The position numbers were made by a program, and so were the translations under genes. 45,384 nucleotides of DNA from a virus (Duplodnaviria > Heunggongvirae > Uroviricota > Caudoviricetes), in IMG/VR virus record IMGVR_UViG_2537561934_000012, positions 1 through 45,384 of that record; one strand, 5' to 3'. Within the stretch, counting starts at the first letter, position 1, and every line of letters starts with the position of its first letter. Below the pieces are notes generated by a model. That model was not told the origin of the DNA and made no database searches. It saw only the letters and a list, made by a program, of their open reading frames with translations. Of this stretch, positions 9,620-45,384 are shown piece by piece.

Positions 9620-9883
9620 ATGAAGAAGCGTTTTTCCGACGAACAGATCATCAGTATTCTCCGCGAAGCCGAAGCTGGGGTACCCGCCCGTGAACTCTGC
9701 CGCAAGCATGCCATTTCCGATGCCACGTTTTACACCTGGCGTAAGAAGTATGGCGGTATGGAGGTGCCTGAAGTTAAGCGCCTGAAGTCGCTTGAGGAAG
9801 AGAACACCAGACTCAAGAAGCTGCTTGCCGAAGCCATGCTGGATAAAGAGGCGCTTCAGGTGGCTCTTGGGCGAAAGTACTGA
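9620..9883 (+). CDS. IS3-family transposase OrfA (HTH and leucine-zipper-like region)
   Basis: 87 aa [20 protein letters not shown]..., typical of IS3-family OrfA proteins. Confidence 0.85.
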
Positions 9884-9906
9884 CGACAGACCAGAAGCGG
9901 GAAGCC

Positions 9907-10740
9907 GTGATGTTGATGTGTGATGCGACCGGTCTGTCGCAACGTCGTGCCTGCAGGCTTACAGGTTTATCCCTGTCGACCTGCCGCTATGAGGCTCACC
10001 GTCCGGCTGCTGATGCGCATTTATCAGGGCGCATCACTGAGCTGGCACTGGAGCGCAGGCGTTTTGGCTACCGTCGTATTTGGCAGTTGCTGCGCCGTGA
10101 AGGGCTTCATGTTAATCATAAGCGCGTGTACCGGCTTTATCACCTCAGTGGCCTGGGCGTAAAACGCAGAAGACGTCGTAAAGGGCTGGCAACAGAACGT
10201 CTGCCGCTGCTCCGTCCGGCGGCGCCCAATCTGACCTGGTCGATGGATTTCGTCATGGACGCACTTTCCACCGGTCGCAGGATCAAGTGTCTTACCTGCG
10301 TCGATGATTTCACAAAGGAATGCCTGACGGTCACTGTTGCCTTTGGGATTTCAGGCGTTCAGGTCACGCGTATTCTGGACAGCATTGCACTGTTTCGAGG
10401 CTATCCGGCGACGATAAGAACTGACCAGGGGCCGGAGTTCACTTGCCGTGCACTGGATCAATGGGCCTTTGAGCATGGTGTTGAGTTGCGCTTAATCCAG
10501 CCGGGCAAGCCAACGCAGAACGGATTTATTGAGAGCTTTAACGGACGATTTCGCGATGAATGTTTGAATGAGCACTGGTTCAGCGATATCGTTCATGCCA
10601 GGAAAATTATTAATGACTGGCGGCAGGATTATAACGAATGCCGCCCGCACTCCACGCTGAATTATCAGACACCGTCTGAATTTGCAGCGGGCTGGAGAAA
10701 GGGTCATTCTGAGAATGAAGATTCCGACGTTACTAACTGA
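9907..10740 (+). CDS. IS3-family transposase OrfB (DDE integrase core); expected to be made as an OrfAB -1 frameshift fusion
   Basis: DDE/rve-like core (...TDQGPEFTC...[32 protein letters not shown]...). Reading frame is -1 relative to OrfA. Confidence 0.85.
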
Positions 10741-11629: not shown

Positions 11630-12208
11630 ATGAGAGACATTGATGTAAGAAAGGCTGTGCATGCCAAGATTCTGAGAGATCATCATAAAGATCCTGACAC
11701 CCTAATCATTGATGAGTTTACGATGAATCTAGGGGCTAGCAGAGCTGATATAGCAGTGATCAATGGGCTTATACATGGTTATGAGTTGAAGAGCAAGAGT
11801 GATAACTTGCTCAGATTACCAGCGCAGGTGCAACATTACTCATCAGTGATGGATAAAGTAACTTTGGTTGTCTCTGATTGCCATCTTTATGATGCTTTAA
11901 GCATAGTTCCATCATGGTGGGGGATAAAGCAAGTTACGCAAGGTGCACGGCAAGGTATCCATTTAAAAACAATTCGAACTAGCAAGTTGAATCCACAAGT
12001 GGACAAACTTTCCTTAACAATGCTTCTTTGGAAAGATGAATTGCTTTCCCTATTAAGTGATGTAGGGGAGCTACAGAATTTGAAAAATAAACCTAAACGC
12101 GTCTTATGGTCAAAACTCGCCAATAGTATGGATGTTGGCGAGCTTCGTGAAGCTGTTCGAGTTAAACTTAAAGCCCGTAAAGAGTGGCGAGTTGCTCAAC
12201 AACCTTAG
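11630..12208 (+). CDS. PD-(D/E)xK-type predicted nuclease (192 aa), candidate defence component A
   Basis: Motif arrangement IIDEF ... RADIAVINGLIHGYELKSK (D, then E-x-K about 12 residues later) typical of restriction-endonuclease-fold proteins. AT-rich gene. Recalls the database family label sce7726 (from memory). Confidence 0.55.
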   Translation: MRDIDVRKAVHAKILRDHHKDPDTLIIDEFTMNLGASRADIAVINGLIHGYELKSKSDNLLRLPAQVQHYSSVMDKVTLVVSDCHLYDALSIVPSWWGIKQVTQGARQGIHLKTIRTSKLNPQVDKLSLTMLLWKDELLSLLSDVGELQNLKNKPKRVLWSKLANSMDVGELREAVRVKLKARKEWRVAQQP

Positions 12209-13265
12209 TTATGTGATGGTTTTGCCCAATCCTACGCCATACCTCTGGGCTACCAAATTTATAGTTACCAGAGGGATTGGCTTTGTAGGCTTGATACTCG
12301 TTTGCATAATATTCTATGTCTCTATCTCCCGCACAGAATGTAGGCCCTGAATATTCTCGATGAGCAAGAATATCCTCACTATGTTTACCATATTGTTCAT
12401 AACCAAAGCGATTAGCTACTCTTCCTCGAAATACCCAAAAGTCATTATCTCCAGAGTATCTGACGCTGGCAGATACGCTAGGGAATCGCGTCGAAAGCCT
12501 ATTAAAGTCGGGGTGCTGTACTCCATAATCACTATAAATCACATTTCTGGCAAGTTCTTTTCTATTCATTAAACTCTGCCATAAAATCCACTCGATTCGA
12601 GGTTGAGAATATAGACCAACAGAAATATCACTGAGATCTGTAGGAAATGAACCCCCAGAAAGAATCACTTTTCTGTATTCATTGAGGTGCGCCAGATTGT
12701 TTATCAATCCCATTGCCAAAGTATATAGTTCGCCGGAATTAAGTTTATCCTCGGTTAACTCATCTCTTAAGTCAATAATTATATCAATATTTGATAAAGG
12801 AATTCCCAGATGATTAATGTAATGCGTTATTAATTGTGGGTTAACCAGATCTAACGTGGTTAATCTCAAGCATATTTCATTCTGCATTAATTCATCAATC
12901 GCTCTTTTATAGTTAGATGGGCGAGTTGGTGAACTGACAGGAATAACTCTTATCCCCATATCTCTAACTTGATTAACCGCATTTATTATAGGGTAATGAT
13001 CTTCAGGAGAAATAAAATGCTCTTCAATTAATAATCCATCAATATAAACACCTTGCATATCTGAGCAAGATTTTGAGACTTTCTTTCCGAACTCTATAAG
13101 AGTCTCGTTATAACTCTTTAAGGCAATACCTGAATCAGGGTCAATTGGCACTGGTTCAATTTCGAGTAATGGCAAAATTTTTGATTTCTTTTCAATGGAT
13201 AGCTGCGATAAAGCTGATAACTCAGAACGTTTCGCTTTCAGAATAGGAATATATGAAATTGTCAT
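12168..13265 (-). CDS. Hypothetical protein (365 aa), candidate defence component B, convergent partner of the PD-(D/E)xK gene
   Basis: Long ORF in AT-rich DNA with an AAGG Shine-Dalgarno. Its 3' end overlaps the partner's 3' end by 41 bp on the opposite strand. Recalls the sce7725-type partner family (from memory). Confidence 0.55.
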   Translation of the reverse strand: MTISYIPILKAKRSELSALSQLSIEKKSKILPLLEIEPVPIDPDSGIALKSYNETLIEFGKKVSKSCSDMQGVYIDGLLIEEHFISPEDHYPIINAVNQVRDMGIRVIPVSSPTRPSNYKRAIDELMQNEICLRLTTLDLVNPQLITHYINHLGIPLSNIDIIIDLRDELTEDKLNSGELYTLAMGLINNLAHLNEYRKVILSGGSFPTDLSDISVGLYSQPRIEWILWQSLMNRKELARNVIYSDYGVQHPDFNRLSTRFPSVSASVRYSGDNDFWVFRGRVANRFGYEQYGKHSEDILAHREYSGPTFCAGDRDIEYYANEYQAYKANPSGNYKFGSPEVWRRIGQNHHITKVVEQLATLYGL

Positions 13266-13822
13266 GTTAATACCTTATACAGAATCAATTAACAATTAAT
13301 GGTTCTTCGGACATTGAAATTTATATCGCAAAAATTGGCAAACTCTCCTCGACTACTCACTTGTGGGTATCCTGGCGTAAAAGGAATGACTTGGCAATAC
13401 CCGGTGTGATCATAAGTCATTGAAAATGATCATTTTTATCAGTCTTTCTTCCATGATGAATGCTAATGCCATTTGATTTGTTGAGGTAAAAAGTGTTAAA
13501 AATCAAAACGATGTAATTGAAATGAACGTTCGGTAGCATTCACGCTTTAAATGTTTCTTTTGTGCTGATTGGATGAATTTTGGTCACTTATGATGAGAGA
13601 TGTTGCAGGAAAAGAAGTTGGCATTGATCTATTGGATAGTTAGAATTGCTGCGGGTGCTTGAGGCTATCTGCCTCAGGCATGAACACCAAAAGGCAGATA
13701 GAGAAAAGCCCCAGTTAACATTACGCGTCCTGCAAGACGCTTAACATTAATCTGAGGCCCAATCTATGTCTCACAAATGTAGGTTAGCCTCTTACGTGCC
13801 GAAAGGCAAGGAGAAGCAGGCT

Positions 13823-13978
13823 ATGAAGCAGCAAAAGGCGATGTTAATCGCCCTTATCGTCATCTGTTTAACCGTCATAGTGACGGCACTGGTAACGAGG
13901 AAAGACCTCTGCGAGGTACGAATCCGAACCGGCCAGACGGAGGTCGCTGTCTTCACAGCTTACGAACCTGAGGAGTAA
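13823..13978 (+). CDS. hokD: Hok/Gef-family type I toxin (51 aa), HokD/RelF-like
   Basis: Product MKQQKAMLIALIVICLTVIVTALVTRKDLCEVRIRTGQTEVAVFTAYEPEE matches the remembered HokD sequence. Single transmembrane helix. An in-frame upstream extension starts at 13766. Confidence 0.8.
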   Translation: MKQQKAMLIALIVICLTVIVTALVTRKDLCEVRIRTGQTEVAVFTAYEPEE

Positions 13979-14046
13979 GAGACCAGGCGAGGGAGAAATC
14001 CCTCGCCACCTCTTATGTGGCAGGCATCCTCAACGCACCCGCACGT

Positions 14047-14073
14047 AACCCGCTTCGGCGGGTTTTGTTTTTT
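14047..14073 (+). terminator. Rho-independent terminator downstream of hok
   Basis: AACCCGC, ttcg loop, GCGGGTT, followed by a T-run. Confidence 0.55.
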
Positions 14074-14145
14074 CCTGGCATTCTGGTTTACAATTCGCAC
14101 GCCAGCCTGAACAACTGGCACCTGCTGCGCCAGCAGAGACAACCG

Positions 14146-14424
14146 ATGGCGCACGATACCAAATTACACAATTCTAATGATTCTGCCGTCTTTGCCAGTA
14201 GGTGCGGACGGCGTTTTCACGCATTCAAATCAGACTGGTTCCAGCATCCTCCATGCACTGAAGAGCAGGCGGAATGGATAATTCAGTGTTACCGCAGGCG
14301 CGGATACGAGGTTAAGAAAGCTCTTAGCCTCGACTACCGTCACTGGATAATCTCAGTCAGACTCCCTTACTCCGAACGCCCACCGCGTTCATCCCGCACA
14401 TACCAGCAACGCATCTGGAGGTAA
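14146..14424 (+). CDS. Hypothetical protein (92 aa)
   Basis: ATG after the hok terminator. The track ORF from 14017 would overlap the terminator, so the internal start is preferred. Confidence 0.4.
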   Translation: MAHDTKLHNSNDSAVFASRCGRRFHAFKSDWFQHPPCTEEQAEWIIQCYRRRGYEVKKALSLDYRHWIISVRLPYSERPPRSSRTYQQRIWR

Positions 14425-16239: not shown

Positions 16240-16356
16240 TTGACCAGACACATTGTCCGGGGCTATATTTCCGACGCAACCGCAAAATCGGTTGTCGGGA
16301 TTAGCACCCCGGATGTTTACGGAGCGATATGAGGCGCGCCCGCGTCTTTTTTCATA
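16240..16356 (+). promoter_or_regulatory. Putative late promoter (PR-prime-like) with downstream Q-responsive terminator-like hairpin
   Basis: TTGACC (16240-16245), 18-nt spacer, TATATT (16264-16269) just after Q. GC-rich element followed by T6 at about 16331-16352. Confidence 0.35.
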
Positions 16357-16516
16357 TCGTTTGCACAGTCATATTCGCGATTTATGGCGGGCTGTGTGGG
16401 GGAGCCGAAAGGCTCGCCGGTTTCCGTACCCGGTAGTGCTAACCCCGCACAGTTCGCCACCACGATGATTAGCACCTGACGGTGGCGATAATGTCCAAAT
16501 GTACGGAGTTATCGTT

Positions 16517-17401: not shown

Positions 17402-17477
<76 letters not shown>

Positions 17478-17480
17478 TAT

Positions 17481-17555
<75 letters not shown>

Positions 17556-45252: not shown

Positions 45253-45384
45253 AACGATAACTCCGTACATTTGGAAATTATCGCCACCGACGACGCCAAT
45301 CGAACTGGTGGCGAACTGTGCAGGGTTGGCGTAACCGGGTACGGAAACCGGCGAGCCTTTCGGCTCCCCCACACAGCCCGCCAT

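Follow-up and report, generated by a model that had tools for sequence, protein, structure and literature searches.

The window considered here, a 45,384-nt stretch of viral DNA (Caudoviricetes; IMG/VR record IMGVR_UViG_2537561934_000012), carries on its plus strand a short gene for a protein of 51 residues, MKQQKAMLIALIVICLTVIVTALVTRKDLCEVRIRTGQTEVAVFTAYEPEE. This product scores 81.6 bits on the Hok/Gef family of Pfam (PF01848; cut-off 22) and is identical at all 51 of 51 residues (100%) to HokD of a K-12-derived strain, which bears out an earlier reading of the sequence alone, in which a hok-family toxin gene matching HokD/RelF had been recognized. The interval then singled out, 13266-14073, ran from the base just past the start codon of a 365-aa gene on the minus strand through the end of the terminator. 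The features that we place in and around this interval, including the predicted RNA elements, are as follows.

Upstream of hok: 192-aa gene, 'sce7726 family' in RefSeq (PADLOC 'cll', 2.4e-28)
Upstream neighbour of hok, minus strand: 365-aa beta-family gene (Pfam PF14350; PADLOC PD-Lambda-2_C, 1.4e-41)
13618-13646, plus strand: hok promoter, with -35 TTGGCA (13618-13623), a 17-bp spacer and -10 TAGAAT (13641-13646)
13653-14072, plus strand: predicted full-length hok mRNA of ~420 nt, the 5' end placed from the promoter and the Rfam start, the 3' end from the terminator
13653-13828, plus strand: 5' leader of the hok mRNA, matching Rfam RF01794 ('sok') over model positions 1-157 of 157
13653-13664, plus strand: tac box GGGUGCUUGAGG, the 5'-terminal translational activator element, paired with 14028-14040 in the full-length minimum-energy fold
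13700-13774, minus strand: predicted Sok antisense RNA of ~71-75 nt, overlapping the mok start codon and Shine-Dalgarno (SD) sequence; sokW of phage 933W maps to 13704-13774
13706-13714, plus strand: ucb or anti-SD box AAGCCCCAG, its role assigned after the R1 model (PMC9841398)
13754-13757, plus strand: SD sequence of mok, GAGG, 8 nt 5' of the mok ATG, as read from the sequence
13766-13978, plus strand: mok reading frame, 70 codons, in the hok frame and with a stop codon common to both
13781-13809, minus strand: Sok promoter, with -35 TTGCCT (13809-13804), a 17-bp spacer and -10 TAACCT (13786-13781)
13788-13816, plus strand: hairpin CCUCUUAC (13788-13795)...AAGGAGAAG, which sequesters the hok SD GGAG (13810-13813) and is paired in all minimum-energy folds
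13823-13978, plus strand: hok toxin gene, 51 codons and stop
13961-13964, plus strand: UACG motif read from the sequence at codons Tyr47-Glu48, a candidate site for A-to-I editing by TadA (Tyr to Cys)
13986-14007, plus strand: hairpin GGCGAGGGAGAAAUCCCUCGCC in the 3' UTR, counterpart of the R1 processing hairpin
14028-14040, plus strand: fbi (fold-back inhibitory) box CCUCAACGCACCC, complementary to tac and starting 49 nt after the stop codon
14047-14075, plus strand: intrinsic terminator of the hairpin-plus-T-run type, stem-loop AACCCGCTTCGGCGGGTT followed by TTTGTTTTTTC

The extent of the leader is best judged from its conservation. A megablast search with 13266-14100 against 5426 complete E. 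coli genomes gave matches in 4739, almost all of which start at query base 376 (13641) and end at 14072-14100, most often at query position 807 (14072); the matches in phage records show the same left edge, and the whole query is covered in only 55 E. coli genomes. In the great majority of its carriers the 432-bp module so delimited (13641-14072) shows 95-99% identity. Its leader portion, 13641-13808, is present in 4290 of the 5426 genomes (nearly 80%; median 2 copies per genome, up to 10) versus only 93 for 13266-13640. Base composition shifts at the same place, with a GC fraction of ~0.33-0.40 over 13200-13700 and 0.31-0.45 in the neighbouring genes as against 0.45-0.56 in the hok module.

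Consistent with this left edge, the hok promoter matches consensus at 10 of 12 positions, and a -10-like hexamer (TAGAAT, TATAAT, TACAAT and variants) stands equally far 5' of GGGTGCTTGAGG in 26 distinct hok loci, in several of which a -35 of the form TTGGCR or TTTGCR recurs. Since the -35 hexamer here comes from poorly conserved flanking DNA, the strength of the promoter is uncertain. The Rfam match (121.7 bits, gathering score 59, E = 1.5e-28) was recovered in a scan of the whole window too; RF01794 bears the Sok name, but by strand and by extent what it matches is the hok mRNA leader as far as the hok AUG. With conservation starting at 13641, the promoter at 13618-13646 and the Rfam model starting at 13653, the transcribed leader would begin at about 13653 and measure ~170 nt (13653-13822). 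The ~500 bp previously allotted to it is thus too long, the left edge of the module lying near 13618-13641 by the genome and phage matches, the leader and spacer counts and the GC shift alike. The 352-375 bp 5' of the module are, by their composition and distribution, a low-GC spacer belonging to the neighbouring beta/sce7726 insert; over 13266-13640 we found no Rfam match, no annotated gene either in RefSeq or in phage records, and no repeats other than short ones at chance level. The suspicion that the leader might hold mok-like and sok-like elements was nonetheless sound in its substance, as these elements are found within 13653-13822, although not in a long leader of ~500 bp.

The in-frame ATG at 13766, which opens a 70-aa reading frame through hok, had been seen in the sequence-only reading and taken for an unusual extension, on the ground that mok normally overlaps hok in another frame. 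The ATG is indeed there, and the reading frame that it opens is mok itself. Its SD sequence is the same GAGG motif as that of R1 mok (PMC9841398), its product differs from the annotated MokW of phage 933W at 7 of 70 residues (90% identity), and database entries for the window protein are mostly 70 aa long. Nor is the frame an oddity. Across 46 aligned hok loci the mok ATG precedes the hok ATG by 56, 57, 58 or 59 nt, and relative frames of 0, +1 and +2 all occur, sometimes inside one clade; in some of these loci mok is a 19-codon frame ending at the hok start. Within the hokD/hokW/hokC group the in-frame state is the commonest, as in mokW of 933W and in K-12-type hokC with its 69-aa in-frame ORF, while canonical R1-type sequences have mok at +1. 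As all three frames are found across the family, the frame of mok is evidently unconstrained, in keeping with the idea that mok serves to bring ribosomes in and not to produce a specific peptide.

Opposite the start of mok lies a predicted cis-encoded antisense gene that would cover it. A search of the leader for a sok promoter, which the earlier reading had suggested, turned up the minus-strand TTGCCT-17-TAACCT listed above; the surrounding 13781-13822 is base-for-base identical to phage 933W, where sokW is annotated, and all 46 loci have the TTGC of the -35. Mutation of the -10 region of sokW abolished antitoxin activity (PMC8621323). The Sok RNA predicted from this promoter has an unpaired 5' end that is complementary to the mok start, then a long hairpin and a U-rich tail, CUUUUCUCU.

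The key long-range element of the hok mRNA is the pairing of its two ends. The tac-fbi pairing, which forms in the minimum-energy fold of the 420-nt RNA, is worth -21.5 kcal/mol, the two boxes being complementary except for one bulged C, and the alternative partners of tac are 13671-13681 (in a 5' hairpin of the 3'-truncated fold) and the ucb box. Against shuffled sequences the duplex of single sequences gives only modest z values, from -0.3 to -4.0, so that the case for it rests on fixed position and covariation rather than on energy. To collect the loci, 80 hok loci were taken from species-representative genomes, using a three-sequence Hok alignment as seed (a five-sequence alignment was too divergent), and reduced to the 46 distinct ones with a recognizable 5' box, among them the window, 933W and an R1-type plasmid. 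In these, the 3' partner of the 5' box lies at a fixed place, ~50-65 nt past the stop codon, and the two boxes covary, GGUGC with GCACC in the hokD/hokC clade and GGCGC with GCGCC in the R1 clade. MAFFT, whether run on whole loci or on the joined 5' and 3' segments, misaligned the two clades' fbi boxes by 2 columns owing to the bulged C of the hokD clade, and for this reason exact complements were counted in place of column-based pairs. The exact complement of a locus's own 5' pentamer is present in its 3' segment in 42 of the 46 loci, as against 2 of 46 for the box of the other clade, which served as control. Among the exceptions is a K-12-type hokC locus, whose 3' region diverges abruptly. 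This divergence we take to be the IS186 insertion described for K-12.

The remaining elements of the mRNA are similarly placed. In the full-length fold, GCCCCAG (13708-13714) pairs with CUGAGGC (13752-13758), and because this pairing covers the mok SD we assign the box at 13706-13714 as anti-SD/ucb; its AAGCCCC is invariant, or almost so, in the 46 loci. The inner stem of the hairpin over the hok SD covaries between loci (GUGCC/GGCA, CGACC/GGUC, CGCGC/GCGC), and a G+C-rich hairpin occupies the position of 13986-14007, between stop codon and fbi, in all aligned loci. In R1 a hairpin at the equivalent position protects and ends the processed, active mRNA (PMC9841398), and by analogy the one here would stop 3' processing. 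The terminator that the earlier reading had assigned to hok is found as described: at 14047-14064 a G+C-rich hairpin of 7 bp precedes TTTGTTTTTT, and this is the sole terminator-like site on the plus strand of 13100-14300. Folding and alignment to hok/sok loci, also proposed at that stage, thus place tac, fbi and ucb and reveal the covariation of tac with fbi. Thermodynamic folding fails to reproduce the refolding step, a kinetic matter that energy models cannot settle: in the 3'-truncated RNA the tac-ucb fold costs 6.2 kcal/mol relative to the minimum, the mok SD is predicted to be equally accessible in full-length and truncated RNA, and the truncated fold shows a local 5' hairpin, unlike the published open form.

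The 3' UTR bears a two-hairpin resemblance to the sRNA isrK, and an isrK-like 3'-UTR sRNA was considered and rejected at 27.9 bits, below the cut-off of 50. A true isrK match lies 2.3 kb downstream of the hok 3' UTR, and this UTR, when used as a query against phages, matched only hok loci and generic terminators.

From these observations we conclude, with a probability of about 0.9, that 13618-14075 is a type I toxin-antitoxin cassette of the hok/mok/sok kind, complete and of the hokD/hokW clade, situated among the early genes of a lambdoid prophage. Judged from the DNA, the elements of a hok mRNA and its Sok are all present, in the right order and complementary to one another, and evolution has kept the key long-range pair. 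The cassette is a textbook type I module of a kind already known, the prophage version hokW-sokW having been annotated and tested before, and it carries little weight as a discovery; its value lies in points of annotation.

A close and experimentally tested relative is the hokW/mokW/sokW module of the Stx2 phages 933W and Sp5 (VT2-Sakai), which is 92.7% identical in nucleotide sequence over 13641-14050. The 933W module shares with that of the window the -10, tac, ucb, an in-frame mok of 70 codons with a stop codon common to mokW and hokW, hok, the 3' hairpin and fbi; its Sok promoter and hok SD region are identical, and its carrier, too, is a lambdoid prophage. Past fbi the two part ways, as 933W does not have the AACCCGC...GGGTT terminator, and the settings also differ: in 933W the module is at 58.4-58.8 kb, toward the right end of the 61.7-kb linear record, whereas in the window it sits between replication-type genes and DUF968/RusA. 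HokW is toxic and is neutralized by sokW expressed from its own promoter (PMC8621323); the hokW-sokW system depends in part on RNase III and Hfq and contributes two-fold to the release of phage after mitomycin C (PMC8621323).

The archetype, hok/sok (parB) of plasmid R1, has the same set of elements in the same order, with the same pairing of tac and fbi at the ends (as summarized for the R1 model in PMC9841398), an anti-SD box over the mok SD, an antisense Sok over the mok start, and a Sok promoter of the same form, TTGCxx-17-TAxCCT, in the same place. The differences lie in the sequences and the carrier. R1 Hok is only ~41-43% identical to the Hok of the window, canonical R1-type mok reads in frame +1 to hok rather than in the hok frame, the tac/fbi cores are GGCGC/GCGCC as opposed to GGUGC/GCACC, and R1 is a plasmid, for which post-segregational killing has been demonstrated.

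By analogy with R1 (PMC9841398) and hokW-sokW (PMC8621323), and given the presence and placement of the parts, the cassette would probably work as follows. A constitutive promoter would yield the ~420-nt hok mRNA, in which tac pairs with fbi; in this closed form the anti-SD box at 13708-13714 would cover the ribosome-binding site of mok, and the local hairpin that of hok, giving a stable pool of mRNA that is silent and inaccessible to Sok. Slow trimming of the 3' end to the 13986-14007 hairpin would remove fbi, upon which the 5' end would refold and expose the mok start region. As long as the locus is transcribed, short-lived Sok (13774 to ~13700, minus strand) would pair with this exposed region, blocking the translation of mok and the coupled translation of hok and marking the duplex for RNase III. 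Should Sok synthesis stop, possibly through loss of the DNA, shut-off of host transcription by an infecting phage, or prophage induction, translation entering at mok would yield Hok, a 51-aa inner-membrane toxin expected to collapse the membrane potential. With mok in frame, ribosomes starting at mok would also make a 70-aa, N-terminally extended Hok. For the prophage the cassette may accordingly serve stabilization, abortive infection, or help with lysis on induction.

An intact structure does not by itself prove an active killing module, given that the chromosomal hokA, hokB and hokC show no post-segregational killing (Pedersen and Gerdes, as cited in bioRxiv 10.1101/2025.08.07.668861). The cassette could then be structurally whole and yet inert as a killer, its Hok output being too low or dependent on a TadA-mediated change of Tyr47 to Cys, and persist as a small selfish passenger recombining between lambdoid prophages. 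We regard this as possible but rather unlikely, and it concerns the biological output of the cassette, not its identity. Position 47 of the Hok here is indeed Tyr, not Cys, within the UACG motif; TACGAA is almost invariant in the 46 loci, and editing of hokD, hokC and hokE is reported in literature cited in the same preprint (bioRxiv 10.1101/2025.08.07.668861). The several copies per genome, a median of 2 and up to 10, could moreover cross-protect via Sok. On the other hand, a passenger without effect sits poorly with a 432-bp module kept at 95-99% identity in the great majority of its carriers, with covariation of tac and fbi across the family, which implies that their pairing has been kept, and with the measurable phenotype of native hokW-sokW on prophage induction.

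The surroundings of the cassette are as the sequence-only reading gave them: relBE is absent, and the upstream neighbour is the 365-aa gene, a beta-family gene on the minus strand. Replication-type genes lie upstream of the cassette, and DUF968 (ydfU-like), RusA and a 131-aa ORF downstream. That hok lies beside a candidate defence pair likewise stands as a statement of adjacency; the association is probably a hot-spot coincidence, for among 44,248 Hok homologues surveyed, enrichment of hok was seen in prophages and not near defence systems (bioRxiv 10.1101/2025.08.07.668861). Adjacency, the PADLOC matches of the pair, the origin of the hok -35 in DNA from the pair's side, and the occurrence of the arrangement in at least 55 genomes and in phage Rac-SA53 might be read to mean that hok and sce7726/beta form one defence unit, with 13266-13640 as a shared regulatory region or long leader. 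This we consider highly improbable: leader and spacer counts of 4290 and 93 genomes mean that the pair is absent from nearly all hok loci, hok and the pair are divergently transcribed, the GC content shifts at the junction, and the published survey shows no enrichment near defence systems. The hok cassette and the candidate defence pair beside it are best seen as two cargo units at a single swap site. A more speculative idea, to which we give very little credence, is that the near-consensus -35 TTGGCA of the insert would raise hok expression in these at least 55 genomes and Rac-SA53, making hok an addiction module that fixes the defence pair, or the abortive-infection effector of that pair; in a variant, the 70-aa Mok-Hok would be a functional second toxin isoform and not a by-product of coupling.

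The local gene order is shared with Escherichia phage Rac-SA53 (KU052037.1), which has the cII-like (sce7726) gene, beta, a 375-bp spacer that is 99.5% identical, mok and hok. There, mok and hok are already annotated, in frame and with a common stop codon. Its hok module is only ~94% identical to that of the window, and its downstream genes (rem, irsA, ybcO, Q) are unlike those here. Several E. coli genomes, STEC and others, have the order DUF977 - sce7726 - beta - hokD - DUF968 - RusA at ~96% identity.

The absence of relBE had been set against K-12, where hokD of the Qin prophage was said to lie downstream of relBE. It does so in K-12, but the implied oddity is reversed. The Qin hokD (relF) encodes a 51-aa protein identical to that of the window, its DNA is 97.7% identical over 13809-14072, including the 3' hairpin, fbi and terminator, and downstream it has genes of the same type as the window (rem / DUF968 ydfU / Q). 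Homology begins only at 13809, at the hok SD, so that promoter, tac, ucb, mok start and Sok are missing; in place of the hok leader stands relBE, of whose operon hokD is the third gene. It is K-12 that is derived, relBE having replaced all that lies 5' of 13809, and the ancestral hokD ORF of ~70 codons was shortened by the integration (PMC6379469). The window, with its full leader from 13641 and no relBE, does not have the K-12-type relBE-hokD (relBEF) arrangement; it has the ancestral, complete form of hokD, the full-length counterpart of the derived, 5'-truncated K-12 gene. That the locus might instead, as the earlier reading allowed, be a decaying remnant like K-12 hokD, which keeps only the part from 13809 on as a toxin ORF stripped of regulatory RNA elements, is scarcely credible and contradicted by the conserved leader structure, in view of the unbroken homology to full-length loci over 13641-14072, the end-to-end Rfam match (1-157 of 157), the ATG and SD of mok, a Sok promoter identical to that of the tested sokW, and tac and fbi boxes complementary except for one bulged base.

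Taken together, the sequence-only reading was right about the gene, its terminator, the in-frame ATG and the neighbours, and, in its interpretation, about a hok toxin with mok- and sok-like elements and no relBE; what falls away is the leader of 500 bp and the sense that an in-frame mok and a missing relBE are anomalies. As regards annotation, RefSeq labels only the 51-aa ORF, as hokD, so that more than 4000 genomes lack annotation of mok, Sok and the regulatory leader, and the K-12 copy that gave hokD its name is a truncated exception to a full-length norm. In these prophages the site between the replication-type genes and DUF968/RusA is a swap site, at which relBE (K-12) or the candidate defence pair (window) abuts or cuts into the hok module. 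Further downstream, the 131-aa ORF is a putative antiterminator-like gene of the DUF1133 type, matching by its position the DUF1133 gene of a related genome.

The possibility that the toxicity of this Hok depends on RNA editing is raised by a short motif near the end of its reading frame, taken together with what has been reported for its relatives:

13961-13964, + strand: UACG, candidate TadA motif, in the Hok Tyr47-Glu48 codons UAC GAA

Across the 46 hok loci of the locus alignment, TACGAA is almost unchanged. In hokC, hokD and hokE, the Tyr at the position of Hok Tyr47 is reported to be recoded to Cys by A-to-I editing, in literature cited by bioRxiv 10.1101/2025.08.07.668861. By analogy, editing at Tyr47 may be required for toxicity here as well.

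Six loci in the comparison set (L014, L024, L031, L066, L067 and L068) are identical or nearly so to E. coli or R1-type sequences. Their contigs, mostly of no more than a few kb, are labelled Veillonella, Acinetobacter, Xanthomonas, Ferruginibacter, Streptomyces and Oscillibacter; enterobacterial or plasmid contamination of the labelled assemblies is the most likely explanation. A K-12-type hokC locus (L022) diverges abruptly from every other hokC-clade locus ~20–30 nt past the hokC stop, and its 3' UTR is without the fbi box. Such a break is consistent with the IS insertion said to inactivate K-12 hokC.

In all 12 RefSeq records listed, drawn from 4290 genomes with a leader match, PGAP leaves the hok leader, the mok start and the Sok region (equivalents of window 13641-13808) unannotated. 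It names the 51-aa ORF alone, calling it hokD even at full-length hokW-like loci.

The hok 3' UTR also bears a likeness to the isrK RNA family, which is found in its own right further downstream:

13987-14068, + strand: hok 3' UTR span, holding hairpin, fbi and terminator
16276-16352, + strand: isrK sRNA (RNA-family match, 71.2 bits)
16380-16464, + strand: C4 antisense RNA (RNA-family match, 78 bits)
45304-45384, - strand: second C4 match, partial, truncated by the window end
17402-17474, + strand: tRNA gene
17481-17552, + strand: second tRNA gene, adjoining the first

Judged by its score, above the cut-off of 50, the match at 16276-16352 is genuine. The 3' UTR scores below that cut-off (27.9 bits, E = 0.0023), probably a mere two-hairpin resemblance, and phage records queried with it returned hok loci and generic terminators, nothing else. 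C4 directly follows isrK, with a 201-aa ORF close downstream, an arrangement that resembles a lambdoid-prophage regulatory region of the isrK/antirepressor type. The tRNA pair lies within the prophage late-regulatory region.

Upstream of hok lie the following features:

9850-9967, + strand: IS1222-type programmed-frameshift element (156.6 bits)
9907-10740: transposase ORF
11630-12208, + strand: sce7726/'cII-like' gene (PADLOC 'cll', 2.4e-28)
12168-13265, - strand: beta-family gene (PF14350; PADLOC PD-Lambda-2_C, 1.4e-41)

The sce7726 and beta genes are convergent with overlapping ends, in a region of low GC (0.31–0.45), and occupy the slot that in K-12 Qin is held by relBE. A 375-bp spacer (13266-13640) accompanies the pair (n = 93 genomes). 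Upstream of the pair, the frameshift element and transposase ORF are the mark of an IS3-family insertion; strain 2013C-3513 and other related genomes have the equivalent neighbourhood without it.
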